Positions 1 to 16,353 of a stretch of 16,353 nt of DNA are shown here, piece after piece. Position numbers and translations under genes: made by a program. Origin of the DNA: Myxococcota bacterium (GTDB taxonomy: Bacteria; Myxococcota; JACRCW01); contig JBFMGU010000240.1 of NCBI GenBank assembly GCA_040752415.1, forward strand, positions 1 through 16,353. Direction: 5' to 3'. The notes beneath the pieces were generated by a model. It saw only the letters and a list, made by a program, of their open reading frames with translations. It had not been told where the DNA came from and did not search any database. Positions within the stretch are counted from its first letter, which is position 1. The number at the start of each line of letters is the position of its first letter.

Positions 1-61
1 CGCCCCTGAACAACCCCCACCCCAGGCCCCCGCTCCCAAGAAGCTGGGCAAGGGTAAGTAG
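1..61 (+). CDS. 3' end of an upstream gene (partial), Pro/Lys-rich tail APEQPPPQAPAPKKLGKGK*; possibly a GltE/AglT-like TPR protein
   Basis: The frame starting at nt 2 is open to TAG at 59-61, about 10 nt before the RBS of the next gene. The gltE identity is inferred only from the usual gltD-gltE-gltF-gltG gene order, not from this short sequence. Confidence 0.45.
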   Translation, partial: APEQPPPQAPAPKKLGKGK

Positions 62-82: not shown

Positions 83-346
83 ATGGAGGACAGGGTGTTG
101 CGCCGTGTGCGGAGGCTCCTTTATAGTGCCGCGCTCTCCGGGCTCGTGCTCGGTCTGTCCGCCTCGGCGGCAACCGCGCAGCAGCGCAAGAAGATCGTGC
201 TGGGAGAGATCACGGTGGAGGGACGCAGGCAGAAGCCCCAGGCCTTCTACATCCTGCAGCGTCAGAACCTGAACTTCGAGGGGCTGGAGCTGAAGAAGAG
301 TTTTGTGCCGAAGATCGAGAAGTCCGTGGAGAAGCAACCGTTTTGA
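83..346 (+). CDS. GltF/CglF (NfsF)-like small exported protein, 87 aa
   Basis: Strong SD. Arg-rich n-region, hydrophobic h-region and ATA cleavage site indicate a Sec signal peptide. The mature part ITVEGRRQKPQAFYILQR...SFVPKIEKSVEK resembles the IEG-x3-KP pattern of CglF-like proteins. It lies directly before a gltG-like gene. Probably a paralogue, so no symbol is given. Confidence 0.72.
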   Translation: MEDRVLRRVRRLLYSAALSGLVLGLSASAATAQQRKKIVLGEITVEGRRQKPQAFYILQRQNLNFEGLELKKSFVPKIEKSVEKQPF

Positions 347-442
347 TGGAATGGTGGCGCGGCTGGAACCGGTGAAGAACGGCGGGTGTCCCTCCGACAG
401 AACCCCGGTGACAGCGCGGAAAGCGACTGCAAAGGTAGCCCG

Positions 443-1804
443 ATGACCACGCAGCAGAAGTCGGCGGAAAAGATCCTCAGGATCGGCGTCATCCACGGCG
501 GCAAGATCGTGGAGGAGCGCCTGCTGAAGAAGCGGGAAGTGGTCTCCGTGGGCTCCGACCCCAAGAACACCTTCGTGCTCCCCGGGGCGGACATCCCCAA
601 GAGCGTGAAGCTGTTTGACTGCAAGGGCGCCATCTACACGCTGTGCTTCACCGACAAGATGGACGGCCGTCTCTCCGTCAATGAGAGCGTCATCGACTTT
701 GCCGGCCTCAAGAGCCAGAACCTGGCCACCAAGACGGGCGACACCTACCGCATCAACCTCACCGACAGCTCCCGCGGCAAGGTGCAGGTGGGCGACGTCA
801 CGCTGCTCTTCCAGTTCGTGGTGCCGCCACCCGTGGCTCCCAAGGCCACGCTGCCCGCGGTGGCGCGCGGCGGCATCATCAAGGGCATGGACCCGCTGTT
901 CTCGGGTCTGATGATCGGCTCCATCGTCTTCCACTTCGGCAGCGCCGCGTTCCTCTCCACGGTGGACCCGCCGCCTCCGCCCACCCTGGAAGACGTGGGT
1001 GAGCGCTTTGCCAAGTACATTGCGCCGGACATCACCAAGCTCAAGCCACCGCCCAAGGTGGAGGAGAAGGTGGCCGACGCTCCCGCCGAGAAGAAGGCGG
1101 AGAAGAAGCAGGACGACGGCAAGAAGGCCGAGAAGAAGGACAGCGGCGCCAAGAAGGCCCAGGACAGCGCGGCGCGCAAGGCCGCCATCCAGAAGGCCGT
1201 GGCCAGCAAGGGTCTCCTCAAGGTGCTCGGCGCGCGCGGCGGCGGCGGTGCCTTTGCCGACGTGTTCTCCAACTCCGGGCCCGGTCAGGGACTGGGGGAG
1301 CTGCTCTCGCAGTCCGGCGGCGTGGGCATTGCCAAGGAAGGCGACGGAGCGCTCTCCGGGCCGCGCGGCGCGGGCTCCGGCACCGGCGCGGCAGACATCG
1401 GCACGCTCAACACGGCGGGCGGCGGTGGCGGCGGCGGCGCGGCGGTGGGCGCCAAGTCCGCGGTGCAGGTGCGCGGTGAGGTGAAGGCCACCAACGTGGA
1501 AGAGGTGGACGGCAGCCTGGACCCCAAGGTCATCACCAAGACCATCCGCGCCCGCATGGCCGGCTTCAAGGCCTGCTACGAGAACGCCCTCAAGCGCAGC
1601 CCCAACCTGCAGGGCAAGGTGACCATCAGCTTCACGATTGACGAGGAAGGCCGGGTCAGCGAGGCGTCCGTCGAGAACGACACGTTGGGGGACCCCGAGG
1701 TTGGTCGCTGCATTGCCAACCTGTTCAAGCGCATCCGCTTCCCCAAGCCAGACGAGGGGACGGTGCAGGCGTCCTTCCCGTTTGTGTTCGTGCCCTCCGG
1801 CTGA
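443..1804 (+). CDS. GltG/PglI-like TonB/TolA-type inner-membrane energy transducer (FHA-like N-domain, one TM helix, low-complexity linker, AgmX/PglI/TonB-like C-domain), 453 aa
   Basis: ATG 443 follows AAAGGT and is preferred over the ORF-track GTG at 386. The N-terminal beta-rich domain reads KILRIGVIHGGKIVEERLL...VSVGSDPKNTFVLP. The TM segment contains SIVFH. The linker is rich in Pro, Lys/Glu and Gly. The C-domain IRARMAGFKACYENALKRSPNLQGKVTISFTIDEEGRV...VGRCI...FPKP...FPFVF carries the typical Cys pair. Confidence 0.88.
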   Translation: MTTQQKSAEKILRIGVIHGGKIVEERLLKKREVVSVGSDPKNTFVLPGADIPKSVKLFDCKGAIYTLCFTDKMDGRLSVNESVIDFAGLKSQNLATKTGDTYRINLTDSSRGKVQVGDVTLLFQFVVPPPVAPKATLPAVARGGIIKGMDPLFSGLMIGSIVFHFGSAAFLSTVDPPPPPTLEDVGERFAKYIAPDITKLKPPPKVEEKVADAPAEKKAEKKQDDGKKAEKKDSGAKKAQDSAARKAAIQKAVASKGLLKVLGARGGGGAFADVFSNSGPGQGLGELLSQSGGVGIAKEGDGALSGPRGAGSGTGAADIGTLNTAGGGGGGGAAVGAKSAVQVRGEVKATNVEEVDGSLDPKVITKTIRARMAGFKACYENALKRSPNLQGKVTISFTIDEEGRVSEASVENDTLGDPEVGRCIANLFKRIRFPKPDEGTVQASFPFVFVPSG

Positions 1805-1919
1805 GCCGCTCAGGCCGCGCGGGGCACCCGGACTGCTTCAACGTGCGCGCCACGGTGGTTGGGCGCGTCGGCTTTTGGGTAGACCCTGACGTGGGACCGG
1901 TTCACTGGGAGGCACACGC

Positions 1920-2825
1920 GTGAAGGCCAAGCAGCTCCCCGAGGTGAGGGAAATCGTCAACAGCGAGCTGTTCCGCTCGTGGTTTGACGCGCTCACCAAG
2001 GCCCGCCTGGCCGCGCGGGAGGCCTCCCTCCGTCATGACGAGGTCCTCACCCAGGTTCACCTCATGGAGTTCCGCGCGGAGCTGGCCCAGAAGAAGGCCA
2101 TGGACGCGCTGTACCGCTCCGGCGACTACGAGAACGCCTCCGCCCAGATGCAGGCCGAAGCCAGTGAGCTGGAGAACAAGAGCCTGGAGGTGGTGGGCCA
2201 GTTCGAGAAGCAGCGCGTGATGTGCACCGAGCTGTGGGTGGCCCTCACCAAGGCGGAGGAGCAGAACGACCCCCGGGCCAAGCGCATCAAGGACGACTAC
2301 GAGCGCGAGACCGCCAAGAAGACGCTGCTCTGGGAAGAGGTGGAGAGCCTGTGGGCGGCCAGCCTGGCCAAGAACCTGGCCATGATCGAGAACCGCGCCA
2401 AGGGCAAGCGCGTGCGCAAGGAGAGCGAGCAGCTCTTTGCCAACGCGGAGCAGGGGAGCCGGTCGGCGGCGGCGTTGAAGGCCGAGACCCAGGAGTCCGC
2501 GCGCGCCCTGGAGCAGGCGGAGGAAGCGGTCCGGGACCTCATGAACAAGGGGCGCACCCAGTTTGACGCCGTGGTGCACGAGGACTTCCTCTACTGGGCC
2601 GCGCGCGAGAACAAACTGGTCTACGTGGTTCCCCTGTTCTCCGACAGCGAGCACTACAACATCGAGCTGACCGCCTGCACCGTCTACCAGTGCGAGCGGA
2701 CGCGCGGCGTGGAGTTCCTGGAGCCGGTCATGGAGCCGCAGAAGGCCACCCGCGTGGACACCCGCCTGGATGACTTCTTCCTCAAGGACCGCCCCAAGGT
2801 GAAGCGCGAGAAGCAGGATGCGTGA
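1920..2825 (+). CDS. Hypothetical cytoplasmic protein, 301 aa; long predicted coiled coil plus a small C-terminal alpha/beta domain
   Basis: GTG start with GGGAGG upstream and strong GC3 codon bias. The first ~210 aa are Glu/Ala/Lys/Leu-rich and helical. No signal peptide or TM segment is seen and no family is recognised. Confidence 0.8.
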   Translation: MKAKQLPEVREIVNSELFRSWFDALTKARLAAREASLRHDEVLTQVHLMEFRAELAQKKAMDALYRSGDYENASAQMQAEASELENKSLEVVGQFEKQRVMCTELWVALTKAEEQNDPRAKRIKDDYERETAKKTLLWEEVESLWAASLAKNLAMIENRAKGKRVRKESEQLFANAEQGSRSAAALKAETQESARALEQAEEAVRDLMNKGRTQFDAVVHEDFLYWAARENKLVYVVPLFSDSEHYNIELTACTVYQCERTRGVEFLEPVMEPQKATRVDTRLDDFFLKDRPKVKREKQDA

Positions 2826-2837
2826 GCGGAGGACGTC

Positions 2838-3284
2838 GTGAACAAGGCGGAAGTGCTGCAGAAGTCCCGGCTCTTCGAGAACCTCCTCCCCGAGGAGATC
2901 GAGATGCTGGCCGAGCTCAGCGTCATGCGTCGCTACAAGGGCGGTGAGGTGGTCTTCGAGAAGGGGGACGTGGGCGACAGCCTGTTCATGGTGGTGGAAG
3001 GTGACGTGGAGGTGCTGCTGCGCGACGGCAGCGGCGAGCCCAAGGTGCTGGCCACCCTGGGCATCCACGACTTCTTTGGGGAGATGAGCCTCATCGACAA
3101 GGAGTACCGGAGCGCCACCGTGCGGGCCAAGAGCGACTGCGCGCTCCTCCTGCTCACCCACGAGAACCTGCACGCCTTCTCCAAGGCCTTCCGGGAGGGC
3201 TTCACCTGGATCACCGTGAACATTGCCCGGGTGCTCAGCCAGCGCCTGCGGGAGACCAACCGCCGCCTGGCCGAGAAGCTCTGA
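2838..3284 (+). CDS. Stand-alone cyclic nucleotide-binding domain protein (CRP/Fnr-type sensor domain, no HTH), 148 aa
   Basis: GGAGG SD at 2828-2832 and a GTG start. Motifs VFEKGDVGDSLFMVVEGDVEV and the phosphate-binding cassette FFGEMSLIDKEYRSATVRA are present. It ends just after the C-helix (IARVLSQRLRETNRRL). Confidence 0.92.
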   Translation: MNKAEVLQKSRLFENLLPEEIEMLAELSVMRRYKGGEVVFEKGDVGDSLFMVVEGDVEVLLRDGSGEPKVLATLGIHDFFGEMSLIDKEYRSATVRAKSDCALLLLTHENLHAFSKAFREGFTWITVNIARVLSQRLRETNRRLAEKL

Positions 3285-3361
3285 GCCGCCTCCGCGAGCG
3301 CTGGAGCGCCTTTCACGTCGTGCAGTAGGCTGCGCGGCCCCCTGGTCCACGGAGCCGTCCC

Positions 3362-6300
3362 TTGAGCAGCGCAGCTGGCTGCAGATGCATCTGTCCCGCG
3401 TCACGTCGTGCCACCGTCCTTTTGTCCGCGGCGGTGCTGTTGACGACGTTGCGATCCCTCCCCGCGCACGCCGGTGAGCTTCGCGGCTGGCCCGTCCGCC
3501 TGGAGTCCGGCATCACCGCCAGCAATCCCGCCGTCGGCGACATTGACGGGGACGGGCGCCTGGAAGTGGTGGTGGGCGCGGGGCAGAGCCTGCACGCGGT
3601 GCGCGCCAACGGCGGCATGGTCGACGGCTGGCCCGTGAAGCTGGCGGGCGAGAAGACCACGCGCAACGAGTTCCCCGCATCCCCCACGCTGTGTGACCTC
3701 GACGGCAACGGCGCGCTGGAAGTGGCCGCGTTGGGCCTGGATCACAAGCTGCACGCGCTCACCGGCGAGGGGCTGCCGGTGGCGGGCTTTCCCGTCGAGG
3801 GTGGTGGCGCGTGGGCCAGCGCCCCGGCGTGCGCGGACCTGGACGGCGACAACCGGCCCGAGCTGGTGTGGGCGGGCAGCGACGGGGTGGTGCGTGCCGT
3901 CGACGGGACGGGGCGCGTGGTGCCGGGCTTCCCGCTGAAGGATCTGCGCGCCGCGGAAGGCATGCTCGCCGTGGGCGACCTGCACGTGAGCCCGGGCGTC
4001 GAGATCGTGGTGGGCGCGGTGGATGGGCGCGTGCACGTGCTGGGGCGCAAGACGGGGAAGGGCGCGTTTGCCTCCGTGGAGGGATTCCCGGTCAAGACGC
4101 AGTTCACTGTCAGCGGCGGCCCCGCCCTGGCCGACCTGGACGCCGACGCCACGCTGGACCTGGCCTTCGGCAGCCAGGACTTCTCCATCCACGCGCTGCG
4201 TGGCGACGGCTCCCACCTGCCGGGCTTTCCGCAGCAGACCAGCTACCGCATCTACGCCCAGCCCGCGCTGGCGGACCTCACCGGCGACGGAAAGCGCGAG
4301 GTGGTGGTGGGCGGTGCCGACGGAAATGTCTACGCGTTCCAACCCGACGGCACTCCCGCCCCGGGGTGGCCGGTGAAGCTGGGGGGTCGCATCAACGCGT
4401 GCGCGGCCGTGGGTGACCTCGACGGCGACGGCAGCCAGGAGGTGGTGGTGGCCAGCGCGGAAGGTCGACTGCACGTGCTGCGCGCCAACGGCACGCCGGT
4501 GGGCGGTTTCCCGGAGACGCCCGGCGGAGCGCTGCAGTCCGCGCCGGTGATCGTGGACCTGGATGGCGACGGACGCATCGAGGTGATCGTCGGAGGCGCG
4601 GCGGGGAAGCTGCACGCCTACAGCTTTGCCAACCTGGGCAAGGTGAAGCGTCCGTACATCGCGTGGCCAACCGCGGGTCATGACGCGGGTCGCGTGTCAC
4701 GCGTGCGGCCCAACGCCGCCATGTTCCTGGGCGTGGCGGTGGCCCCGGATGCCGCGCGCACCGAGGACGAGCTGACCGTGCGCTACCGCTTCGTCGACCT
4801 GGATGGCGACGCGGAGAAGGACACGCAGGTCCGCTGGTACCTGGATGGCCAGCTGGTGACGGAGCTCAACAACAAACGCGCCGTCCCACGTGAGCGCACC
4901 GCCAAGCGACAGCGCTGGAGCTACACGCTGCAGGAGGGCGCGGACTTCCAGGCGCAGGGAGAAGGGAAGGGCGCCACCATCTGGCGCAGCAACGAGCTCA
5001 CCGTGGCCAACACCGCGCCCACGGCACCGGTGGTGGGATTCAAGAACCAGGAGCCCCGGACCGACGACGTCCTGGAAGTGGTCATCACCCAGCCCGCGCA
5101 GGATGCCGACCAGGACACGCTGCAATACCGCTTCCGCTGGTTCCGCAACCGCGAGGCGGTGACGGACCTCCCACTCTCCGCGAGCACGGTGGACGGTACG
5201 CGCACGCGCAAGGGGGAGCGTTGGCGCGTGGTGGTCACGGCGTTTGATGGCGAGGTGGAGGGCGCGTCGGGTGCTGCGGACGTGACGGTGCTCAACACCA
5301 CGCCCAGCGCGCCGGGCCTGGTCCTCGATCCCGCGGAGCCGGGCGCGGCGGTCCCGGTGCACGCGGTCATCCAGAAGCCCAGCACGGACCCCGATGGCGA
5401 CGTCATCACCTATGAATACGCGTGGAGCGTGAACGGTGGCCCGGTGCCGCTCATGAAGGACCGCGACACGCTCCCGCCGTACTCGGTGCGCAAGGGCCAA
5501 CGCATCACGCTGGTGGTGACCCCGCGCGACGACGAAGCGCCCGGCCAGACCACGACGTTGGAGACCACCGTGGTGAACACGCCACCCCGCCCGGCCGCGG
5601 TGACGGTCCTTCCCTCCGGCGCCCGCACCGACGACGATCTGCAGGCGTCCATCAGCGCGCCCGCTCATGACGTCGACGGCGACCACGTGACCTACGCGTT
5701 CACCTGGGCGCGCGACGGCCAGCCGCTTCCCGCCACGGACCCGCTGACGGTGCCCCGCGACCAGACCGTGAAGGGCCAGAAGTTCACCCTCACCGCGCTT
5801 CCCTCCGACGGTACCCGCGACGGAACCCACGCCAGCGGAGACCTGACCGTGGCCAACACCGCGCCGGGCGGGGCCCGGGCCCACCTGGAGCCCTCGGAGC
5901 CGCGCGCGGGCGACACGATGAAGGTGGTCATCGACCAGCCCGCGCCCGACGCCGACGGGGACGCGGTCAGCTACCGCATTCGCTGGCTGCGCGACGGCAA
6001 GGATGAAACCGCGCGCGCCAAGGGCGAGGCGCTGCCTGCGGGCATCATCCGCAAGGGCGAGGTCTGGCAAGCCGTGGTCACCGCTTTCGACGGCGTGGCC
6101 ACCGGCACTCCCGTTTCCACCGACGAGAAACGCGTGCTCGACACCCCTCCCACCTCACCCACCGTGGCGGTGCGCGCCAAGGGCAGCAGTGGAACCGCCG
6201 TGGGCACCGAGGACGTGCTGGTGGTGCAGGTGGTGAAGCCCGCCACCGACGTCGACAAGGACGCGGTGAGCTACCGGTACCGCTGGTTTGTCGACGGGAT

Positions 6301-9300: not shown

Positions 9301-10225
9301 CGAGGAGGAGGGGCCGGCGGTGTGGGCGGAGGCGGTGGTGATCAACACGCCGCCCCGGGCTCCCGTGCTGGCCGTGACACCGCGCGAGCCGCTCACCACC
9401 AACACGCTCACCTGCGCCGTCACCAGCCCCGCGCAGGACGTGGACGGCGACGTGGTGACCTACCGCACGCGCTGGCTGCGCAATGGCCAGCCGGTTCCGC
9501 TCGTCGACGGTGACCGGCTCTCCCCGGAGGCCACGCACCGCGGCGAGAAGTGGAGCTGCACCGCGGCCGCGCACGACGGGGAGGCGCTGGGCGCGTGGGG
9601 GAACGCCGGGGAGGTGACGGTGCTCAACACCGCGCCCCAGGCGCCGCAGGTGGGGGTGGTGCCGCGCGCGCCCAAGGTGGGTGAGCCGCTGAGCTGTCGC
9701 GTGGCCAGCGAAGCCCGCGACCACGACGGCGACCCGCCGCGCTACACATTCCGCTGGGAGAAGAACGGTCGCCCGGTGGCGAAGCTGGACGGGGCGTTGG
9801 AGGTGCCGGGCGCGGAGGTGCGTCGCGGGGACCGCTGGGGCTGCTGGGCCCAGGCCGCGGACGACGCGCGCAGCGGGGAACCCGGGCCCCGCACCGAGGT
9901 GGCCGTGGGGAACACGCCGCCCAGCGCGCCGGTGGTGGAGGTGCTGCCCGCCTCACCACGCCCCGGGGACCCGCTCCGCTGCGAGGTGCGCCAGGTCTCC
10001 GTGGATCCCGACGGGGACCGCGTCAGCTACCGCGTGGTCTGGGAGAAGGACGGCGTGCAGCAGTCGTTCGCCTCCACCGAGGTCCAGGTGGCCGGTCGCC
10101 TGGTGATGGCTGGCCAGACCTGGCGCTGCATCCTGACCGCCAGCGACGGACGACTGGACAGCCCCCCGGGCCGCAGCCCGCCGGTTTCGGTCCAGCCCAC
10201 GGGATCCCCCGCCGCGTCGCGCTGA
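3362..10225 (+). CDS. Giant exported repeat protein, 2287 aa: signal peptide, 8 FG-GAP/VCBS-like repeats (beta-propeller), ~19 cadherin/Ig-like repeats with an internal Pro-rich linker
   Basis: Uninterrupted 6.9-kb ORF with GC3 bias. The TTG start has GGAG 7 nt upstream, but the exact start is uncertain. The h-region ends in AHA|G. It has repeated DLDGDG-x2-E-VVV blades, then ~95-aa units of the form NTPP...D-x-DGD-x-(V/L)-x-Y-x-(Y/F)-x-W...KG-x2-W-x-V-x-V...DG. Confidence 0.88.
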   Translation: MSSAAGCRCICPASRRATVLLSAAVLLTTLRSLPAHAGELRGWPVRLESGITASNPAVGDIDGDGRLEVVVGAGQSLHAVRANGGMVDGWPVKLAGEKTTRNEFPASPTLCDLDGNGALEVAALGLDHKLHALTGEGLPVAGFPVEGGGAWASAPACADLDGDNRPELVWAGSDGVVRAVDGTGRVVPGFPLKDLRAAEGMLAVGDLHVSPGVEIVVGAVDGRVHVLGRKTGKGAFASVEGFPVKTQFTVSGGPALADLDADATLDLAFGSQDFSIHALRGDGSHLPGFPQQTSYRIYAQPALADLTGDGKREVVVGGADGNVYAFQPDGTPAPGWPVKLGGRINACAAVGDLDGDGSQEVVVASAEGRLHVLRANGTPVGGFPETPGGALQSAPVIVDLDGDGRIEVIVGGAAGKLHAYSFANLGKVKRPYIAWPTAGHDAGRVSRVRPNAAMFLGVAVAPDAARTEDELTVRYRFVDLDGDAEKDTQVRWYLDGQLVTELNNKRAVPRERTAKRQRWSYTLQEGADFQAQGEGKGATIWRSNELTVANTAPTAPVVGFKNQEPRTDDVLEVVITQPAQDADQDTLQYRFRWFRNREAVTDLPLSASTVDGTRTRKGERWRVVVTAFDGEVEGASGAADVTVLNTTPSAPGLVLDPAEPGAAVPVHAVIQKPSTDPDGDVITYEYAWSVNGGPVPLMKDRDTLPPYSVRKGQRITLVVTPRDDEAPGQTTTLETTVVNTPPRPAAVTVLPSGARTDDDLQASISAPAHDVDGDHVTYAFTWARDGQPLPATDPLTVPRDQTVKGQKFTLTALPSDGTRDGTHASGDLTVANTAPGGARAHLEPSEPRAGDTMKVVIDQPAPDADGDAVSYRIRWLRDGKDETARAKGEALPAGIIRKGEVWQAVVTAFDGVATGTPVSTDEKRVLDTPPTSPTVAVRAKGSSGTAVGTEDVLVVQVVKPATDVDKDAVSYRYRWFVDGMLQDVPDTQDAIPAARTERGQTWRVEVTPVADGRRGTPVTSEVTVGNTPPKAPPLSIFPAKPLAGQSLRVSMGRAPEDADGDPVRLTFRWLRNGSPAGVEGAVVPAGRTRKGETWTAVATPADDNGDGAPTQVAVMVGNTPPAPPRIQVTPLSPRTTNVVEVQVLQPASDVDGDAVKLGYTWFVDGAEAKALAGKTRLAKGEFKKNQRLRVEVTPSDGTASGAKVVAEIRSVNSAPSAPQVRLQPADVAVPGPLKVEMTAPAQDPDGDGLTYRHRFYRNGTLLTLPPTTTAVPKEMLRRGDAWRVEVVAYDGETEGPAGSAEALVVNAAPSSPKVRFVHDTVTVAGPLDVEITTPAVDADEDTLQYQHRFRRNGQVVDLPSWRSGVPRTLLKKGDKWSVDVVATDGQLRSAPATAEAKVVNTPPTAPVVRFSAQRNGSQPLKVELVAPAHDVDGDTLTYRYRYTRAGGAVKLDPKTDTIPVTMLRAGEKWQVTVVAFDGEKEGPVASAEAVIQPPNTPPVEEAAPAIPAPPVLPSETEPTAPAPPDPATQAPPPSRPAVCRAQGPTENALPRAGEALRVVFGTDAVSQAAAAGTVQWLRDGQDAVRGNEVPPGTVRKRERWQPVVTTSDGKTVRCRELTVGDTPPGAPAVTLTPTGPRAGQPLTAEVVAPGSDVDGDAVSVRFRWFLDGVPQDIPERDAVVAGARVRKGQRWRVQAVSVADGAEGASAGAEVTVGNTPPAPLEIVVTPAQPLPGQELEVNLARPADDVDGDPVALRFQWIVNGQDAGIAEPRVPARRLKKGEVWQVWVIGSDGEVETPPAGAKVTVRNALPTPPVVSLGESRIRAGSAVEVKQLRAAADSDGDKVTVSYTWWVDGKEVPAFKGRTRLEPTELKKNQRIRLVATPHDGAEAGPSVHAEVQVLNTPPTAPAIRFNKEQLPVTEALKVELTRPATDADGDTLTYRYRFLRNGVRVKLPESESAVPAAMMKKNERWRVEVVAFDGEEEGPAVWAEAVVINTPPRAPVLAVTPREPLTTNTLTCAVTSPAQDVDGDVVTYRTRWLRNGQPVPLVDGDRLSPEATHRGEKWSCTAAAHDGEALGAWGNAGEVTVLNTAPQAPQVGVVPRAPKVGEPLSCRVASEARDHDGDPPRYTFRWEKNGRPVAKLDGALEVPGAEVRRGDRWGCWAQAADDARSGEPGPRTEVAVGNTPPSAPVVEVLPASPRPGDPLRCEVRQVSVDPDGDRVSYRVVWEKDGVQQSFASTEVQVAGRLVMAGQTWRCILTASDGRLDSPPGRSPPVSVQPTGSPAASR
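3476..4700 (+). repeat. Eight FG-GAP-like (DxDGDG) repeats with G(W/F)P spacers
   Basis: Blade cores: DIDGDG, DLDGNG, DLDGDN, DLHVSP (degenerate), DLDADA, DLTGDG, DLDGDG, DLDGDG. Each is preceded by GWP or GFP. The region closes with WPTAGHDAGR. Confidence 0.85.
4712..10195 (+). repeat. Tandem array of ~19 protein-level beta-sandwich repeats (~95 aa, ~285 nt each)
   Basis: Counted by eye: 18 units carry DxD(G/Q/K/E)D and one unit (~7970-8221) lacks it. Most units start with N/D-T-P-P or NxAP. The repeats are diverged at the DNA level. Confidence 0.82.
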
Positions 10226-10400
10226 ACAGCCTGCCGCATCCGCGCCACACACCGGACGCATGCCCAAATCCGTCCGTCCGTTGGCCACGCCCGCCGAGGC
10301 GTCGCGCGCATCCAAGCAGTGGGCGCACCCGCCAAACCGTGGTATCGGCCGGGGGTTGGGCGGTGCACGCAGGCGTGCCGCCCTGGCATCTGGGGCAGTC

Positions 10401-12182
10401 ATGAACATTCGGCATGGACTGACGGTTGCGGGTCTGGTGTGCGTGTTGGCGGCGCCCCACGTGGCGCGCGCGGACGCGAAGGATGCTTCCCAGGAGATGG
10501 GCATCCGGCTCACGGAGCGGGCCAAGCTGCACCTGGCGCTGGGCGCGCTGATGGGCATTGACAGCAACCCCAACGCGGTGCCCTACGAGCTGACCCGCGC
10601 GCGCGCCAGCAACGAGCAGGCACAGTTCTTCAACGGCCCGGCGGTGACGGTGCCGGAGGGGCTGCCGCATCCCAACAAGCTGGTCTTTGAATTCCCGCCC
10701 GACGCGTTCCTGGCGCTGCGTCCTTCCATGGCGTTCAACATGCCGGGGGACCGCCTCAACGCCAACGCCAACATTGGCCTGAACTATTACGAGTACCTGG
10801 GCATCTTCCAGCCGGGCCTGCCGTTCATCCCCGGCACCGCGGCGTCCAAGAGCGGGTACAGCGTCTGGGCCTACAACAGCGGCTACCGACGGCTGCGCAC
10901 CCTGGACGGCTCCGCTTCCGGCGGCCTGGAGCTCAACCGGACGGGGCCGTTCGGCCTGGCGCTCAGCGGTGGCCTGATGCGCTCGGTGGATCCGGGCCCC
11001 ATCGTGGTTGGGACGCGGCTGGCGCGCACCAACGCCAACGGCACCATCGCCGGCGTGGCCCGGCCGGGCGGTGGGACCATGTCCTTCACCGGGTCGCTGG
11101 GCGTCTCCGCGGAAATCTACGACCCGCAGAACGGCAAGGACTTCTTTGGCAACCCCATCCCGCCGTTCAGCGCCGGCCCCAGCGCCGGTCCGCTGTTCCT
11201 GTTCGGTGAAGGGAACCCCGTGGACGTGATGGGCCTGGCGCCCGCCGCCAACGCCACCGTGGACCCGCGGCAGTTCCACAACGCGGGCTCGTCGCTGTCG
11301 TTCCAGTGGCAGTGGCGCTTCCTGCCCAAGAGCGCGGTGTACGCCGGCGCCAGCGCAGGCACGCACTTCTACCTGTACCCGTTCCAGAACACGAACGCGC
11401 CCTCGTTCCCCGTTGGCGCGTCCATTGGCTACCTGGGGCAGATCACCGCCAAGCTGGGCCTGGTGGCCTCGGTGGGGTTCACCTATCCCATCTTCATCTG
11501 CCTGGAGCCCCTGGCGGCTCCCTCGGCGGCCACGCAGAGCTGCTCGGCCAACACCGGGTTCATCAACGGGCAGCCGCAGAACAACGCGCAGGGCCAGTCC
11601 GACCTGGAAACCCTGGGCGTTCCCGTCGCGCAGTACCTGTGGTGGGCACCGGAGCTGACCCGGTGGCAGTCGTACGCGTCGGCGCCGGGGGGCCAGCTGG
11701 AGGCCCGCTACCAGTTCACGCCCACGCTGGCCGGCGCGGTGGGGGTCCGTCGGCAGCTGCGGCTGGTCCCGCTCTACCGCTACCTCACCGACAACCGCGT
11801 CTACGCCACGCTGGTGGGCACGTTCATGCAGCGCTTCCAGGTGTCCCTGACGGCGTCGGAGGCGGTGCAGCCGCACGGTCAGCTCACCGAGAGCACCGCC
11901 GGGTACAACCAGTACCCCTTTGACGAGCAGTTCCGGCAGCTGGTGCCCGCGCTGGCCAACAGCGACCCGGGCCGCTGGGACAATGACCTGAGCGTCTCCG
12001 CCGCGCTCAACGTGGCGCTGCTGAAGTGGTTCCTGGTGGGCGTGGGCAACACCCTGACCTGGCACGCCACCAACGCCGCCACCGGCGGGCCCAATGACTC
12101 CCCCGGCGTCTATAACGAAAAGCCGTTCAATCTCAGCTACGTGCGCAACGTGACGGTGCTGCAGGCTGAACTGCGCTATTAG
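10401..12182 (+). CDS. Outer-membrane beta-barrel for polysaccharide export (Wzp/EpsX/ExoB-like), 593 aa
   Basis: ATG 10401 gives a clean signal peptide MNIRHGLTVAGLVCVLAAPHVARA|D and is preferred over the ORF-track start at 10260. It has a DSN motif after the first strand, many alternating amphipathic strands, and a C-terminal BAM beta-signal VTVLQAELRY. It lies 6 nt upstream of a short OPX gene. Confidence 0.75.
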   Translation: MNIRHGLTVAGLVCVLAAPHVARADAKDASQEMGIRLTERAKLHLALGALMGIDSNPNAVPYELTRARASNEQAQFFNGPAVTVPEGLPHPNKLVFEFPPDAFLALRPSMAFNMPGDRLNANANIGLNYYEYLGIFQPGLPFIPGTAASKSGYSVWAYNSGYRRLRTLDGSASGGLELNRTGPFGLALSGGLMRSVDPGPIVVGTRLARTNANGTIAGVARPGGGTMSFTGSLGVSAEIYDPQNGKDFFGNPIPPFSAGPSAGPLFLFGEGNPVDVMGLAPAANATVDPRQFHNAGSSLSFQWQWRFLPKSAVYAGASAGTHFYLYPFQNTNAPSFPVGASIGYLGQITAKLGLVASVGFTYPIFICLEPLAAPSAATQSCSANTGFINGQPQNNAQGQSDLETLGVPVAQYLWWAPELTRWQSYASAPGGQLEARYQFTPTLAGAVGVRRQLRLVPLYRYLTDNRVYATLVGTFMQRFQVSLTASEAVQPHGQLTESTAGYNQYPFDEQFRQLVPALANSDPGRWDNDLSVSAALNVALLKWFLVGVGNTLTWHATNAATGGPNDSPGVYNEKPFNLSYVRNVTVLQAELRY

Positions 12183-12188
12183 CGGGCC

Positions 12189-12800
12189 ATGGTGGATCGG
12201 TTTCTCCGTCGTGGGTGGGTCTGGGCGCTGCCGCTCCTGCTGGTGTTGGGAGGGTGCCCGGGCAACGCCACCACCACCGCGGAGGAGCGGCCCGCCACCG
12301 CGCTCCCCGCCGCCGACACGCTGGACGTGGGCGACGTCATCGAGGTCAAGGTCTACGGTGAGCCGGACCTCAGCGGCTCCCACAAGGTCCGCAGCGACGG
12401 GACGGTGGGCCTGCCGCTGGTGGGTCTGGTGAACGTGCGCGGGATGACGCCGGAGCTGGCCGCCGACGCCATCAGCAACGCCTACGCCAAAGGCTACCTC
12501 AAGAACCCCCAGGTCTCGGTGGTGGTGACGGCGTTCAATTCCAAGCGCTTCTACGTGCTGGGCGCGGTGAACAATCCCGGCGTGTTTGCCTACGAAGCGG
12601 ACATGAACATCCTGCGGGCGGTGATCATGGCGGGAGGATTCGCGCCCAACGCCTCCAAGAACAGCGTGCTGGTCACGCGCACGGTCAAGGGTGTGGAGAC
12701 CCGGATTGAGGTGGCGGTGGATGACATCGGGCAGGGAAAAGCCAAGAATTTCCCTCTCTTGCCGGGGGACATTGTATACGTCCCCACCTCCCTGCTCTAG
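12189..12800 (+). CDS. wza: Short polysaccharide export (OPX/Wza-like) lipoprotein, Poly_export plus one SLBB domain, 203 aa
   Basis: Lipobox-like LVLGG|C. PES motif LDVGDVIEVKVYGEPDLSG...VRSDGTVGLPLVGLVNVRGMT...YLKNPQVSV. SLBB domain FYVLGAVNNPG...AVIMAGGF. It ends at LLPGDIVYVPTSLL. Confidence 0.92.
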   Translation: MVDRFLRRGWVWALPLLLVLGGCPGNATTTAEERPATALPAADTLDVGDVIEVKVYGEPDLSGSHKVRSDGTVGLPLVGLVNVRGMTPELAADAISNAYAKGYLKNPQVSVVVTAFNSKRFYVLGAVNNPGVFAYEADMNILRAVIMAGGFAPNASKNSVLVTRTVKGVETRIEVAVDDIGQGKAKNFPLLPGDIVYVPTSLL

Positions 12801-12809
12801 GCGGCAGCC

Positions 12810-15035
12810 GTGGCTGAAGCGCACCTGGTTCCACCGCACAACCCTCCGCCCCCGGGCCAGGCCCTGGAGGACGCGCCGCTGGACCTGCGCCAGTACTGGA
12901 ACACCATTGTCAACCACCTCTGGACGGTGGTGCTGGTGACGGTGGCGGTGACGGCGGGCACCACGCTGTGGACCCTGCGCCAGCCCAAGATCTACCGCGC
13001 CCAGGCCCAGGTGGCGGTGGACTTCAACACGCCCAAGGTGCTCTCCGAGGTGCGCGAGGTGGTGGAGCTGGGCTCGCTCACCGCCTGGAACAACCGCGCC
13101 TACATGGACCTGCAGCTGGCCATGTTGCGCTCCCGGGAGGTCTCCCTGGAGATTGCGCGGCGGCTGGCGGAGGACCCCACCTTTGTCCCGGTGAGCGAGC
13201 GCGAGAGCGCGCTGCGCTGGCTGCCCAACTACGTCCGGGGCGTGCTCCAGGCCTCCAGCGACAAGGACAGCCGCATCGTCAACATCGTGGCGGAGGACAC
13301 GGCGCCGGAGCGCATCACCCGCGTGGTGAACGTGGCGGCGGATGTCTTCATCGAGCGCAATCTGGAGCAGAAGATGGAAGCCACCGTGGGCGCCAATGAG
13401 TGGCTGGTGGGCCAGGTGGATGAGTTGGAGGGCAGCCTGGAGAAGAGCGAGGTGGCGCTCCAGAGGTTCAAGGAGGAGCACGACATCCTGAGCGCCACGT
13501 TCGAGGACCGGCAGTCCATCAACAGCCAGGACCTGCTGGCGCTCAGCAAGGCCATCACCGACCTCCGCCTCCGCAAGATGGAGCTGGAGGTGCGCGAGCA
13601 GCAGACGCAGCGGGTGATGGCGGAGTCCGCCGACGGCGGCCTGGGGGTGCGCGCGCTGCCCCAGGTCTACAGCAACGCGAGCGTCCAGGAGCACCACGCC
13701 GAGCTGCAGAAGCTCCGGACCGAGCGCGCGGACCTCCTGAGCCGGTACGGCGAGCTGCACCCCAAGCTGCAAAGCATTGAGCGGCAGATCCAGATGCAGC
13801 AGGAGGAGCTTGACCGCGAGATCCAGCTCATCCTGGAGGTGGAGCGTCGGTCCCTCTCGGAGCTCAACGAGGTGGAAAAGGTCTACGAGACCGCCCTGGA
13901 GCGCGCCAAGTCCGAGGCGTTCGAGGTCAACCGGCACGAGATTGCCTACAACCGGCTCAGGCGGGAGCAGACCAACAACGAGCGCCTGTACGAGATGGTG
14001 CTGCGTCGCCAGAAGGAGGCGGACCTCTCCGCGGCCATGAAGTTCAACAACATGCGCCTGATGGAGAAGGCGTTGGTGCCCAACACGCCGGTGCGCCCCA
14101 ACAACACGCGCAACGTCATGTTTGGCATGATCATCGGCCTGCTGCTGGGCATTGCCATGGCATTCCTCCTGGAGTTCCTGGACAACACCGTCAAGAGCCA
14201 GGCCGACGTGGAGCAGAAGCTGGGGATGGTGTTCCTGGGCGTGCTGCCGTCCATCAAGTCCACCACCGGCGAGGCCACGCCGGAGGCCAAGGAGGGCACT
14301 GCCCGCAGCCCCTCACGCGACCTGCACGTGCACCTCTACCCGAAGAGCGCGGTGGCGGAGTGCTGTCGGGCGCTGCGCACCAACCTGCTGTTCATGACGC
14401 CGGACGCGCCGCTGAAGACCATCCTCATCACCAGCCCGGGTCCGCAGGAAGGCAAGACCACCGCCGCCATCAGCCTGTCCATTGCCATGGCGCAGTCCGG
14501 CGGGCGCACGTTGCTGGTGGACACCGACCTGCGTCGGCCGCGCATCCACAAGAGCTTCCAGATCTCCAACCAGGTTGGCGTCACCAGCGTTCTCGTCGGG
14601 GACTGCGAGCTGAAGGACGCCATCAAGAGCACCGAGGTGCCAGGCCTGTACGTGCTGCCCTGCGGGCCCATCCCGCCCAATCCCGCGGAGCTGCTGCACA
14701 CCGCGCGCTTCCAGGAGACGCTGGAGAAGCTCAAGGAGCAGTTTGACCGCGTGATCCTGGACAGCCCGCCGGTGGGCGCGGTGGCCGACGCGCTCATCCT
14801 CAGCTCCTACGTGGGCGGCGTGGTGATGGCGCTGCGCTGCAACAAGACCAGCAAGGACATGGCGGCCCGCACGCGCCGGGCGTTGGTGGACGTCAACGCG
14901 CACATGCTGGGCGTGGTGCTGAACGACCTCGATCTCGAGAGCAAGTCTGGCTACTACAGCTACTACCTGGCCCGGTACGGCTACGTGTACGGCGACCCGG
15001 AGGGCGAGGGTACCAGCAGCGCCAAGGCGGCGTGA
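12810..15035 (+). CDS. wzc: Polysaccharide co-polymerase with fused BY-kinase (Wzc, PCP-2a), 741 aa
   Basis: Wzz-like N-terminus LDLRQYW, TM1 and PKIYRA. Long periplasmic coiled coil with YGELHP. TM2 is GMIIGLLLGIAMAFLLEFLDNTVKS. Kinase motifs: E-x2-R-x-LRTNL, Walker A SPGPQEGKTT, A' LLVDTDLRRP, Walker B VILDSPP, and Tyr cluster YYSYYLARYGYVY. Confidence 0.95.
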   Translation: MAEAHLVPPHNPPPPGQALEDAPLDLRQYWNTIVNHLWTVVLVTVAVTAGTTLWTLRQPKIYRAQAQVAVDFNTPKVLSEVREVVELGSLTAWNNRAYMDLQLAMLRSREVSLEIARRLAEDPTFVPVSERESALRWLPNYVRGVLQASSDKDSRIVNIVAEDTAPERITRVVNVAADVFIERNLEQKMEATVGANEWLVGQVDELEGSLEKSEVALQRFKEEHDILSATFEDRQSINSQDLLALSKAITDLRLRKMELEVREQQTQRVMAESADGGLGVRALPQVYSNASVQEHHAELQKLRTERADLLSRYGELHPKLQSIERQIQMQQEELDREIQLILEVERRSLSELNEVEKVYETALERAKSEAFEVNRHEIAYNRLRREQTNNERLYEMVLRRQKEADLSAAMKFNNMRLMEKALVPNTPVRPNNTRNVMFGMIIGLLLGIAMAFLLEFLDNTVKSQADVEQKLGMVFLGVLPSIKSTTGEATPEAKEGTARSPSRDLHVHLYPKSAVAECCRALRTNLLFMTPDAPLKTILITSPGPQEGKTTAAISLSIAMAQSGGRTLLVDTDLRRPRIHKSFQISNQVGVTSVLVGDCELKDAIKSTEVPGLYVLPCGPIPPNPAELLHTARFQETLEKLKEQFDRVILDSPPVGAVADALILSSYVGGVVMALRCNKTSKDMAARTRRALVDVNAHMLGVVLNDLDLESKSGYYSYYLARYGYVYGDPEGEGTSSAKAA

Positions 15036-15059
15036 CGTCGCGCGCGGCGCGGAGAGCCC

Positions 15060-15977
15060 ATGAGCATCACCGTTCCCGCCGCGGGTGCCGTCAGCAGCCT
15101 GGCCGTGCGCAAGGGCATTGTGCTGGCGGGTGGTCGCGGCACGCGCCTCTATCCGCTGACGAGCTTTGCCAACAAGCAGCTCCTGCCCGTCTATGACAAG
15201 CCCATGGTCTACTACCCCATCAGCACCCTGATGCTGGGGGGTATCCGCGACATCCTCATCATCAGCGGCCCCGACGAGATTCCGCTCTACCAGCGCCTGC
15301 TGGGCAGCGGAGACCGCTACGGCGTGCGCTTCAGCTACGCGGTGCAGGCGGCGCCGCGCGGCATTGCCGAGGCCTTCCTGGTGGGGGAGGAGTTCATTGC
15401 CGGGCAGTGCTGCAGCCTCATCCTGGGCGACAACATCTTCTTTGGCACCCTGGATTTCCTGCGCGCCGCGCTCCACCGCGAACAGGGCGCCACCGTCTTT
15501 GGCTACCGCGTGAAGAACCCGCAGGAGTACGGCGTGGTGGAGATGGCGCCGGACGGTCGCGCGTTGTCCCTGGAGGAGAAACCCGCCGCCCCGCGCAGCA
15601 ACTACGCCGTGCCTGGCCTGTACGTGTACGACCAGCAGGTGGTGGAGATTGCCCGCAACCTCAGGCCCTCCCCGCGCGGGGAGCTGGAGATCACCGACGT
15701 CAACCGCGTCTACCTGGAGCGCAAGCAGCTGCGCGTGGAGTTGCTGCCGCGCGGCATGGCCTGGCTGGACACCGGCACGGTGCAGAGCCTGCTGGACGCC
15801 AGCGAGTTCGTGGGCGCGATTGAGCGGCGGCAGGGCCTCAAGATTGCGTGCCTGGAGGAGGTGGCGCTGCGCATGGGGTTCGTCTCGCCGGCGCAGATGC
15901 GCGAGGTGATTGCCCGGTACCCGGCCAGCGAATACCGCACGTACATTGAAGGGATCCTGGGCGAGGCGGGCGCTTGA
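15060..15977 (+). CDS. rmlA: Glucose-1-phosphate thymidylyltransferase, 305 aa
   Basis: Motifs KGIVLAGGRGTRLYPLT, KQLLPVYDKPMVYYP, LILGDNIF, EEKP, SNYAVPGLY, RGELEITD, WLDTGT and RQGLKIACLEE. GGAG SD upstream. Confidence 0.96.
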   Translation: MSITVPAAGAVSSLAVRKGIVLAGGRGTRLYPLTSFANKQLLPVYDKPMVYYPISTLMLGGIRDILIISGPDEIPLYQRLLGSGDRYGVRFSYAVQAAPRGIAEAFLVGEEFIAGQCCSLILGDNIFFGTLDFLRAALHREQGATVFGYRVKNPQEYGVVEMAPDGRALSLEEKPAAPRSNYAVPGLYVYDQQVVEIARNLRPSPRGELEITDVNRVYLERKQLRVELLPRGMAWLDTGTVQSLLDASEFVGAIERRQGLKIACLEEVALRMGFVSPAQMREVIARYPASEYRTYIEGILGEAGA

Positions 15978-16353
15978 GCGAGGAGCCGGTTCCACGGTGG
16001 TACGCGCTGGCCGTCCACGCGCGGCAGGAGAAGGCCGCCGCCGCGGAGCTGGAGGGGCGCGGGTTCCAGGTGCTGTTGCCGCTCAAGCGCGAGCGCCGCC
16101 TGTGGAGCGACCGCGTGCAGACGGTGGAGCTGGCGCTCTTCCCGGGATACCTGTTCGTGCACACCGGGCTGAGCGCGGCGCGTCGGGTGGACATGCTGAA
16201 GGTGCGCCAGACCTATGACCTGGTGGGGCGCCTGCCGGGGGATGAGCGCATTGCCACGCCGGTTGGCGACGAGGAGATTGCCAGCATCCAGACGCTCCTG
16301 CGCGCCGAGCGCGAGATGGACCCGGTGGAGCGCCTGGTGCGCGGCACGCGCGT
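15974..16353 (+). CDS. NusG-paralogue transcription antiterminator (UpxY/TaA/LoaP/RfaH-like), partial, runs off the window; absent from the supplied ORF track
   Basis: The TTG at 15974 overlaps the rmlA stop (TTGA), with GAGG at 15963-15966. Manual translation: MSEEPVPRWYALAVHARQEKAAAAELEGRGFQVLLPLKRERRLWSDRVQTVELALFPGYLFVH...PVGDEEIASIQTLL...LVRGTR. This matches an NGN domain (WY...EK...LFPGYLFV) with the WSDR motif typical of UpxY-like proteins. The KOW domain would begin at the window edge. Confidence 0.9.
   Translation, partial: MSEEPVPRWYALAVHARQEKAAAAELEGRGFQVLLPLKRERRLWSDRVQTVELALFPGYLFVHTGLSAARRVDMLKVRQTYDLVGRLPGDERIATPVGDEEIASIQTLLRAEREMDPVERLVRGTR

Follow-up and report, generated by a model that had tools for sequence, protein, structure and literature searches.

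Gene content of the locus

The subject of this study is a 16,353-bp contig of a Myxococcota bacterium (JBFMGU010000240.1, contig C158 of the source genome in our coding), which we refer to as the window and which carries a paralogue of the GltG protein of the Glt gliding machine followed by genes for polysaccharide export. The source assembly divides an 11-Mb genome into 520 contigs, and the window is one complete contig that starts inside a gene cluster. Our comparison within the phylum shows that the window is the distal half of a Myxococcota-wide Glt-paralogue locus of the type called G4 in Myxococcus xanthus, joined to a BPS-like Wzp-Wza-Wzc export block. Families (f1-f32), genomes (G-numbers, with G000 for the source genome), contigs of the respective genome (C-numbers) and loci (L-numbers) are given by code, and open reading frames (ORFs) of relatives were called with our own heuristic. 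Ten plus-strand ORFs span the entire contig, with a GC content at third codon positions of 0.85-0.95, and are preceded by the end of a further gene:

2-61, plus strand: 3' part of an upstream gene truncated at the contig start, ending in ...APAPKKLGKGK and a stop; probably a GltE-like TPR lipoprotein
83-346, plus strand: GltF-like small periplasmic protein, 87 aa, with a signal peptide and a mature part of ~55 aa
386-1804, plus strand: G4-type GltG paralogue, 472 aa, from NF033760, NF033768, the structure model, Foldseek and the tree
1920-2825, plus strand: coiled-coil/helical cytoplasmic protein, 301 aa, with a small C-terminal domain; outside known families
2838-3284, plus strand: stand-alone cyclic-nucleotide-binding protein, 148 aa (PF00027)
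3362-10225, plus strand: giant secreted FG-GAP/Ig-repeat protein, 2287 aa, with a signal peptide, FG-GAP_3 and repeats
10401-12182, plus strand: Wzp-type outer-membrane beta-barrel, 593 aa from a revised start; the ORF is open from 10260
12189-12800, plus strand: class-3 OPX lipoprotein Wza of WzaB type, 203 aa, with Poly_export, SLBB and the lipobox LGGC
12810-15035, plus strand: PCP-2a Wzc with fused BY-kinase (Wzz, GNVR, TIGR01007)
15060-15977, plus strand: RmlA, glucose-1-phosphate thymidylyltransferase (TIGR01207)
15974-16351, plus strand: UpxY/LoaP-like NusG paralogue, truncated at the contig end, with the NGN domain only (PF02357, NF033644)

The intergenic gaps measure 39, 115, 12, 77, 175, 6, 9 and 24 nt, and there is one 4-nt overlap. 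An earlier note on this DNA had described ten genes on one strand with gaps of at most 175 nt and no convincing terminator. All ten ORFs were found where it had placed them, and the window contains eight terminator-like sites against 7.7 expected from shuffled sequences, i.e. no excess. Promoter-like sites in the window showed no excess either, and an Rfam scan of it returned zero families. The note had overlooked the upstream tail, as bases 2-61 encode the end of a further co-directional gene. In scans with Pfam and NCBIfam, the ORFs at 83-346, 1920-2825 and 10260-12182 had no family match.

The GltG-like protein belongs to the G4 clade

The product of 386-1804 scores 178 bits with the GltG model NF033760 (cut-off 650), aligned to profile positions 189-649 only, and 101.7 bits with the AgmX/PglI tail model NF033768 (cut-off 40). 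It is not a canonical GltG equivalog, as it falls below the cut-off of the first model and does not carry both FHA domains. In the AlphaFold2 model, a confident beta-sandwich (residues 30-145) is followed by a transmembrane (TM) helix (170-192), a disordered segment (213-359) and a confident C-terminal domain (364-470), and the periplasmic linker is disordered and rich in Pro, Lys and Gly. Foldseek matched the N-terminal domain to FHA folds (TMt 0.55-0.64) and the C-terminal domain to the TonB C-terminal domain (CTD) 6fip (TMt 0.56). This is the broad layout of a Glt/Nfs transducer, namely a cytoplasmic FHA-like domain, one TM helix, a disordered linker and a TonB-CTD-like domain. An earlier description of the protein as FHA-less was wrong: this possibility is ruled out by the one FHA-like domain that Foldseek finds in the model. 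The membrane-proximal FHA-like domain is retained and only the first FHA is missing. In the published GltG model, the membrane-proximal FHA contacts the AglR channel and the first FHA binds GltI.

The earlier note had suggested a GltG phylogeny, and we calculated trees for GltG (39 rows) and for the motor protein TolQ (26 rows) as quick searches with SH-aLRT support only and no bootstraps. The clade labels Nfs, G5 and G4 were inferred from relative chromosomal position and gene count against published locus tags. One f11 genome, G117, has exactly four GltG-family copies of 1093 (above the equivalog cut-off), 348, 178 and 171 bits; they mark the Glt and Nfs-like clades (SH-aLRT 98 and 99, respectively), a G5-like branch and a G4-like clade. 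The latter has an SH-aLRT of 90 with 23 rows and 95 with 24 rows and includes both the G117 copy at 2.32 Mb and the window protein, whose sister is a copy on contig C493 of the same genome (SH-aLRT 100), followed by that of G002 (99). The window copy thus lies in the G4 clade, apart from the Glt and Nfs clades, and this placement rules out that it is the gliding GltG or NfsG.

The source genome contains at least six GltG-family genes, and the copy on C349 scores 547 bits with NF033760. The C493 copy (L185, G000:C493:26000-33000) is a second G4-type GltG of 439 aa, ~50% identical to that of the window, with no cluster partners in its vicinity. The preceding gene on the same strand encodes a 370-aa protein with a TIGR02266 domain.

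The G4 locus across the Myxococcota

Our survey covered 151 Myxococcota genomes, drawn evenly from the phylum and including the source genome, with match thresholds of E <=1e-55 for G4-type GltG, E <=1e-33 for WzaB-type Wza and E <=1e-80 for MglA. G4-type GltG was found in 106 of the 151 genomes (81/112 among those of high quality), nearly always as a single copy, and WzaB-type Wza in 102/151. Both are present in 92 genomes, and in 42 of these the GltG gene is followed by Wza on the same contig and strand, at a distance of 1.8-10.4 kb. The linked genomes represent 10 families (f1, f4 with 15/18, f7, f11 with 18/19, f12, f15, f17, f26, f30 and f31). Searches with tblastn revealed the linkage in two additional genomes (G013 and G029). 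In f12, the layout was also seen in two genomes whose Wza matched more weakly. An MglA orthologue was detected in 112/151 genomes, 96 of which hold both mglA and the GltG gene. On the same strand, 8.1-15.5 kb upstream of the latter, mglA was found in 47/96 genomes from 16 families, corresponding to 47 of the 53 in which the two genes share a contig; all six exceptions belong to f6.

Gene maps of 68 loci gave the consensus MglB-MglA-x260-C-D-E-F-(TolQ-TolR-TolR)-G-(cc)-(cNMP)-(giant)-(y210)-Wzp-Wza(-Wzc), where single letters denote Glt-like proteins, cc the coiled-coil protein and cNMP the cyclic-nucleotide-binding protein, and where bracketed genes occur in some families only. Four genomes below the 150-bit filter (G036, G027, G073, G083) are unscored in the maps but included in the counts based on coordinates. 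The genes between G and Wzp are variable, and Wzp-Wza always end the array. G012 and G117 both show the order MglB, MglA, a 272-aa protein, GltC-, GltD- and GltE-like proteins, F, G, cNMP, a 210-aa protein, the barrel and Wza, of which D, E, F, G, cNMP, y210, Wzp and Wza correspond gene for gene to MXAN_1922 down to MXAN_1915 of M. xanthus. MXAN_1922 has been described as the homologue of gltD in the G4 cluster, to which no function was assigned (Luciano 2011, PMC3169522). In the published annotation, WzpB and WzaB are MXAN_1916 and MXAN_1915, MglA and MglB are MXAN_1925 and MXAN_1926, and wzpB/wzaB lie ~1 Mb from wzcB and the remaining BPS cluster. The earlier note had suggested that a Glt paralogue cluster lies near the BPS genes wzaB/wzpB, and these locus tags bear this out (MXAN_1922 of G4 against MXAN_1916/1915). 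We regard it as settled that the arrangement of G4 and exporter is old and widespread.

A divergent organization was observed in G042 (L206, C1:217014-229547), where MglB-MglA are followed by Wzp-Wza within ~1.5 kb and G4 genes do not lie between them. G4-type GltG was not found in this genome at E 1e-55, and the locus resembles an ancestral array from which the G4 block was cleanly lost. Contigs assembled from RNA libraries were available for an organism coded A. Three of them from three studies (X5, X8, X14) each cover L095:10001-20000, from Wza to the GltD-like gene, as single contigs of 15.5-20.6 kb with ~93% identity, and in run X18 the cover is interrupted within the G gene at variant bubbles. 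We drew no evidence of co-transcription from this cover, because a contig is no proof of one continuous transcript and the libraries may contain carried-over DNA.

Remaining cluster genes, motors and the outer-membrane position

In the source genome, contig C164 ends (L184, G000:C164:1-6000) with an MglB-like gene, a 196-aa GTPase 93% identical to MglA of G002, a 278-aa protein and a GltC-like gene (799 aa) reaching to within 176 nt of the edge. That C164 joins the window is inferred, because the GltD/E-like genes that would stand between them were not found in the assembly: the best tblastn matches have 24-28% identity, on C510, C210 and C223, and are read as other paralogues because two of these contigs have no listed GltG-family match. 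The Pro/Ala/Lys-rich ending at 2-61 of the window (GKLG..K before the stop) is co-directional with the cluster and resembles the ends of ORFs in the GltE position just upstream of the F-like gene in G012, G035, G113 and G005; judged by this resemblance, the truncated upstream gene probably encodes a GltE-like TPR lipoprotein. The next ORF (83-346) is preceded by a ribosome-binding site, aaggagg, at 71-77, and its product is 43-62% identical (tblastn) to the small protein encoded at the same position in relatives. The earlier label GltF-like has no direct family match behind it and is retained for its positional orthologues, one of which, in G012, matches CglF weakly (NF033764, 30 bits against a cut-off of 90).

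In many families, a TolQ-TolR-TolR motor (TolQRR; Pfam MotA_ExbB, ExbD) is encoded between F and G. The TolQ copies embedded in G4 clusters form one clade in the 26-row tree (SH-aLRT 96, 13 rows), which also includes the G117 copy at 3.54 Mb, whose set is taken by position to be the M2 set MXAN_3003-5, and a copy on contig C114 of the source genome. This contig (L186, G000:C114:3000-8000) carries two tandem TolQ-TolR-TolR sets, the first in the AglR-like clade and the second (C114b) in the M2-type clade. M2, the sole additional complete Agl set of M. xanthus, is dispensable for motility and sporulation (Wartel 2013, PMC3858216). It is without a known partner, and two-hybrid tests in the same paper gave no contact of M2 with GltG or NfsG. 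Since M2-type genes lie inside G4 clusters and M2 lacks these contacts, M2 is probably the cognate motor of G4.

A related arrangement was detected away from G4. TolQRR directly precedes Wzp-Wza-Wzc in 10 of the 48 WzaB-type loci that are not G4-linked, in six families (f18 with five genomes; f20, f27, f28 and f10 with one each; f32 with one, cut by a contig edge). The TolQ proteins of two of these loci (G124, G112) fall into the AglR-like clade (SH-aLRT 96), and the other eight are assigned to it from 69-85% sequence identity to the G112 copy. An UpxY-like gene often follows in these AglR-clade loci (L162, L163, L197-L200, L203, L211, L212, L221), and in the genomes with this arrangement a G4 cluster with a motor of its own is retained separately.

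The outer-membrane components differ among the GltG paralogues of G117. The GltH/CglE model NF033755 matches only beside its Glt and Nfs GltG copies and the GltK/CglC model NF033754 only at 2.95 Mb. GltH/GltK-type genes were not found at its G4 locus, where GltA and GltB were not searched with their own models, and the cluster proteins of G005 and G012 gave no match to GltH/GltK, GltI or full GltJ models. Downstream of G, the Glt and Nfs clusters of G117 have a CglE/GltH-type outer-membrane gene, and G4 has Wzp and Wza. Because GltH/GltK-type parts are missing and Wzp-Wza occupy that slot, we propose Wzp-Wza as the outer-membrane partner of the G4 machine.

Motor and transducer could also be parts of a second Tol-Pal-like system for envelope integrity or outer-membrane tethering, regulated by cyclic nucleotides and without a specific cargo. 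The TolQ/TolR/TolA-like logic of the M2-type motor and the GltG-like protein would fit such a system, as would the YbgF/CpoB-like TPR repeats of the GltC-like and GltD-like proteins and the nearly universal, single-copy occurrence in the phylum noted above (106/151). However, a genuine Tol-Pal system exists at another place in the M. xanthus genome, TolB-like or Pal-like genes were not seen in the annotated clusters, and the neighbouring mglBA, cNMP and Wzp-Wza genes would be left unexplained. We consider such a role highly improbable.

The export block

The ORF of the barrel is open from 10260, where the earlier note had placed its start. A start at 10401 is more likely, because a signal peptide follows Met48 of the longer ORF. 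The AlphaFold2 model of the barrel has 18 long strands (pLDDT 72, pTM 0.70). Foldseek returned only generic outer-membrane barrels (TM <0.5), and the product of 10401-12182 had no Pfam match. Its identity to the barrels encoded 5' of Wza in relatives is 21-26%, and distant homologues of 432-442 aa bear PF10082. The protein ends in ...ELRY, and its gene ends 6 nt 5' of wza. Known Wzp-type porins have 18 strands, and an 18-strand barrel model adjoining a class-3 OPX gene is what we find here.

Wza has the organization of a class-3 OPX protein: it is a 203-aa lipoprotein with PES and one SLBB domain and no C-terminal outer-membrane helix. It scores 76.6 bits with Poly_export, in addition to SLBB, and its best PDB match is 9n9a, a solved class-3 OPX chain (E 2.6e-44, residues 27-202). 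In G117, the G4-adjacent Wza copy reaches 155 bits and the two other Wza copies 88 and 72 bits. Wzc carries Wzz, GNVR and BY-kinase domains (TIGR01007, 185.6 bits against a cut-off of 108), the Walker A motif GPQEGKT, A' and B motifs and a seven-tyrosine tail, SGYYSYYLARYGYVYG; only one TM-like segment (433-461) passed our crude hydropathy filter. RmlA scores 422.8 bits with TIGR01207 (cut-off 360.65). The NusG paralogue scores 61 bits with PF02357 and 61 bits with NF033644 (cut-off 100), its KOW part lying beyond the contig end, and UpxY-like paralogues are likewise found 3' of Wzc in G124, G027, G083, G068 and G034. A search of the assembly gave no contig continuing the NusG-like gene, and the remaining polysaccharide pathway lies off the contig.

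At G4-linked loci and at three f6 loci (L188, L220, L225), a protein of ~210 aa without family assignment is encoded directly 5' of Wzp. Its gene belongs to the exporter module, because it stays with Wzp in the three f6 loci away from G4. It is absent from the window, where Wzp is ~150 aa longer than usual.

The coiled-coil and cyclic-nucleotide-binding proteins

In the 301-aa coiled-coil protein, neither a signal peptide nor a TM segment was detected, and an Atlas search with it and with the 260-aa protein of the upstream part of the cluster named no family. Its orthologues are encoded directly 3' of the GltG-like gene in many families, and the order G-cc-cNMP is consecutive in 28 of the 30 single-locus genomes that supplied alignments, from 13 families. 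Within f11, the coiled-coil gene was found in 3/13 loci and the cNMP gene was undetected in 3/13.

The cNMP protein scores 79.3 bits with PF00027 (cut-off 27.5) and contains the phosphate-binding cassette FGEMSLIDKEYRSA, in which G81, E82, R91 and A93 are invariant among 29 orthologues. With a mean column identity of 66% in these orthologues, it is the best-conserved member of this group. Modelled together as a complex, the cNMP protein, coiled-coil protein and GltG N-terminal domain scored 0.35 (runs 0.38, 0.35 and 0.27), against 0.00 for the best control. The runs agreed on at least 87% of contacts, partner pLDDT was at least 81, and in one control the coiled-coil protein was replaced. In the calibration of this tool, which applies only roughly to three chains with our own alignments, 116 of 157 solved complexes passed the mark, as did 2 of 215 mismatched pairs, and passes at <=0.60 comprised only 18 of the solved complexes together with both mismatches. 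By the rating of the tool, the model lends weak support to a predicted association of the three proteins. The cNMP switch suggested earlier is backed only by the conserved synteny, the intact binding residues and this weak prediction.

The giant repeat protein and possible adhesin handling

In the giant protein, a signal peptide is followed by an FG-GAP beta-propeller at ~40-460 (FG-GAP_3, 97 bits) and ~19 tandem Ig-like repeats of 94 aa, with the motif NTxP...DxDGD...YxW..G at a spacing of 92-95 aa. No tandem repeats were detected at the DNA level in its gene (3362-10225). The repeats are thus old and diverged and not recently amplified, because the periodicity is present in the protein and not in the DNA. 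At the corresponding position, G002, G005 and G023 encode shorter orthologues of 1300-1600 aa, and the gene lies between the cNMP gene and Wzp in eight families (f1, f2, f4, f15, f16, f17, f21, f25).

This position inside the cluster, together with the signal peptide, the propeller and the DxDGD-bearing repeats, could mean that the cargo of the G4/M2 machine is the giant itself, an integrin-like adhesin, and that the exporter at most supplies a matrix to which it binds. There is a precedent in the Glt machine, which works with the surface adhesins CglB and CglD. However, the gene is absent from 13/13 f11 loci and from many families keeping the remainder of the cluster, for which reason the giant cannot be the core cargo, and an anchoring signal was not seen at its C-terminus. 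We therefore judge adhesin handling unlikely as the function of the machine.

Possible coupling of the G4/M2 machine to polysaccharide export

Taken together, the data could point to a machine that couples proton motive force to polysaccharide export. An M2-type, TolQ5R2-like proton channel would energise the TolA/TonB-like GltG paralogue, whose FHA-like domain would sit at the cytoplasmic face of the channel, and the paralogue would act via a periplasmic TPR scaffold of GltC/D/E/F-like proteins. Its partner at the surface or in the outer membrane may be the Wzp-Wza translocon or the exiting polymer, together with the FG-GAP/Ig-repeat protein where present. The output would be positioning or gating of export sites dependent on proton motive force, or handling of the secreted polymer, in parallel to the action of Agl-Nfs on the spore-coat polymer. 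In the cytoplasm, the coiled-coil protein and the cNMP receptor could make up a regulatory platform that is probably subject to polarity control by MglA/MglB. We would place this explanation as a whole, mechanism included, just on the doubtful side of an even call.

The following points favour functional coupling. The adjacency of G4 and Wzp-Wza persists although the intervening genes change, an independent AglRQS-type-Wzp-Wza-Wzc arrangement exists in other families, the GltH-type slot of G4 is empty, and by analogy Agl-Nfs offers the precedent of a Glt paralogue that handles a Wza-exported polymer. On these grounds coupling is plausible, and we put it forward tentatively. If it is real, the G4/M2 machine is most likely modulatory, acting in placement, gating or post-export handling, and not essential for export.

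Several observations weigh against coupling. Neither gliding nor twitching is affected "at any appreciable level" by a polar insertion in MXAN_1922 (Luciano 2011, PMC3169522), and mutants of the BPS pathway have swarm phenotypes; from the normal motility of the former and the swarm phenotypes of the latter, it follows that either BPS export does not need G4 or wzpB/wzaB are transcribed from a promoter of their own. G4 and Wza are not adjacent in 50/92 genomes, including all of f6 (0/16), and some of the cases outside f6 may be assembly breaks. In f6, f8, f18, f19, f21, f23 and f24 the cluster is kept without an adjacent exporter, and mglA is tied to it more faithfully than Wza (47/53 against 42/92). 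Conversely, the exporter can stand without G4, because G042 has mglBA-Wzp-Wza and no G4 GltG. Synteny shared by related genomes is not independent evidence. Furthermore, G4-type GltD/E-like genes were not found in the source assembly by tblastn, the complex prediction is weak by the calibration of the tool itself, and the absence of the giant gene from all 13 f11 loci examined argues against it as a strict requirement. In M. xanthus WzaB, a C-terminal FF contacts WzpB and an RR contacts WzcB (PMC12819527), whereas the window Wza ends in ...PTSLL, with LL for FF, and has LKNPQV (KN) for the VRRPQV (RR) of the solved chain.

Four of these points, namely the wider conservation of the mglBA...GltG block, the families with a cluster and no adjacent exporter, the free-standing Wzp-Wza of G042 and the M. 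xanthus polar mutant without a motility phenotype, would also be expected if the genes were neighbours by descent only. The G4/M2 machine would then have an envelope function unrelated to polysaccharide, e.g. an MglA-controlled polar Tol-like process, and Wzp-Wza would simply have kept their ancestral position. However, the link has been kept across 10 families despite changing genes between G and Wzp, and in M. xanthus wzpB/wzaB have stayed at G4, away from their own biosynthetic cluster. Moreover, a paralogous AglRQS-type motor precedes Wzp-Wza-Wzc in six further families, and this weakens an origin by descent only, because shared ancestry of one arrangement does not explain it. That these are two real but uncoupled systems, neighbours by descent only, we regard as somewhat improbable.

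Coupling of the G4/M2 machine to export could also point to its origin. TolQR-type Agl/M2 motors with Glt-like transducers might be ancestral accessory engines of class-3 OPX polysaccharide secretion, with Glt and Nfs as later specialisations and G4/M2 as the surviving original acting on a BPS-type polymer. The ancestral machine would have positioned, gated or pulled the polymer under MglA/MglB polarity control and with a cyclic-nucleotide input. This scenario, in both its parts, seems to us rather unlikely.

Overall, the interpretation given in the earlier note is partly supported, by the link to BPS genes, the placement of the window GltG in the G4 clade and the recurrence of the linkage. 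Its idea that the machine moves, anchors or releases the polymer stays hypothetical, and the observations above speak against a strict requirement. G4 and M2 were called systems of unknown function in M. xanthus in 2011 (PMC3169522), and our survey adds four leads. M2-type motor genes lie inside G4-type clusters in many families, which makes M2 the probable G4 motor; the cluster lies directly 3' of mglBA almost wherever contigs permit a check; it holds a highly conserved cNMP receptor and a coiled-coil partner; and on its 3' side it is followed by the genes for outer-membrane exit in a BPS-type pathway, with an AglRQS-type paralogue similarly placed elsewhere. We found no statement of these links in the accessible portions of PMC7310880, PMC9601211, PMC12819527, PMC3169522, PMC3858216, PMC4316618 and PMC4546325 or in literature searches with locus tags; the review by Agrebi et al. 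2015 (capsule biogenesis, motility) may hold part of the argument, and Figures 1B and S1 of Luciano 2011 may show the neighbourhood. If coupling is true, the principle that a motor transports a secreted glycan would extend from spores to vegetative polysaccharide secretion, and polarity control and cyclic-nucleotide signalling would be linked to it. If it is false, the survey nevertheless delineates an envelope machine that is linked to MglA, single-copy and found across the phylum. The unassigned G4 paralogue system becomes a testable question.

Comparison with known systems

The closest known system is G4/M2 of M. xanthus (PMC3169522, PMC3858216). The window GltG shares its clade with the G117 copy at 2.32 Mb, gene order and count of the locus match MXAN_1926 down to MXAN_1915, and the M2-clade motor is unlinked in the source genome, as in f11. 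In contrast to M. xanthus, the window has a coiled-coil gene and the 2287-aa giant gene and no 210-aa gene, its Wzp comprises 593 aa instead of ~440, and its wzc, rmlA and UpxY-like genes are contiguous with wza, whereas wzcB of M. xanthus is ~1 Mb away.

With the Agl-Glt gliding machine, the locus shares the domain logic of GltG (FHA, TM, disordered linker, TonB-CTD) and, as seen in relatives, the periplasmic GltC/D/E/F-like set. It differs in that the window GltG-like protein reaches 178 bits against 650 and is without the first, GltI-binding FHA, that no GltH/GltK homologue was found at the G4 locus of G117, and that a G4 mutant of M. xanthus is reported to glide normally (PMC3169522).

The nfs genes, which we take to be MXAN_3371-3378 in M. 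xanthus, provide the functional parallel. Agl-Nfs has been shown by experiment to transport the Exo polymer after its export, and exoA/wzaS is MXAN_3225, a locus tag distant from nfs. As in the G4 cluster, a Glt paralogue is combined with a TolQRR-type motor and a TonB/TolA-like G protein, whereas NfsG belongs to a separate clade and the nfs system has the NfsA, NfsB and NfsH barrels and uses AglRQS.

The export block, finally, compares with the BPS translocon WzaB-WzpB-WzcB (Mellouk 2026, PMC12819527; Islam 2020, PMC7310880). Apart from the LL for FF and KN for RR replacements in Wza, the window encodes corresponding parts: a 203-aa lipoprotein with PES and SLBB domains, an adjoining barrel modelled with 18 strands and a PCP-2a Wzc with fused kinase.

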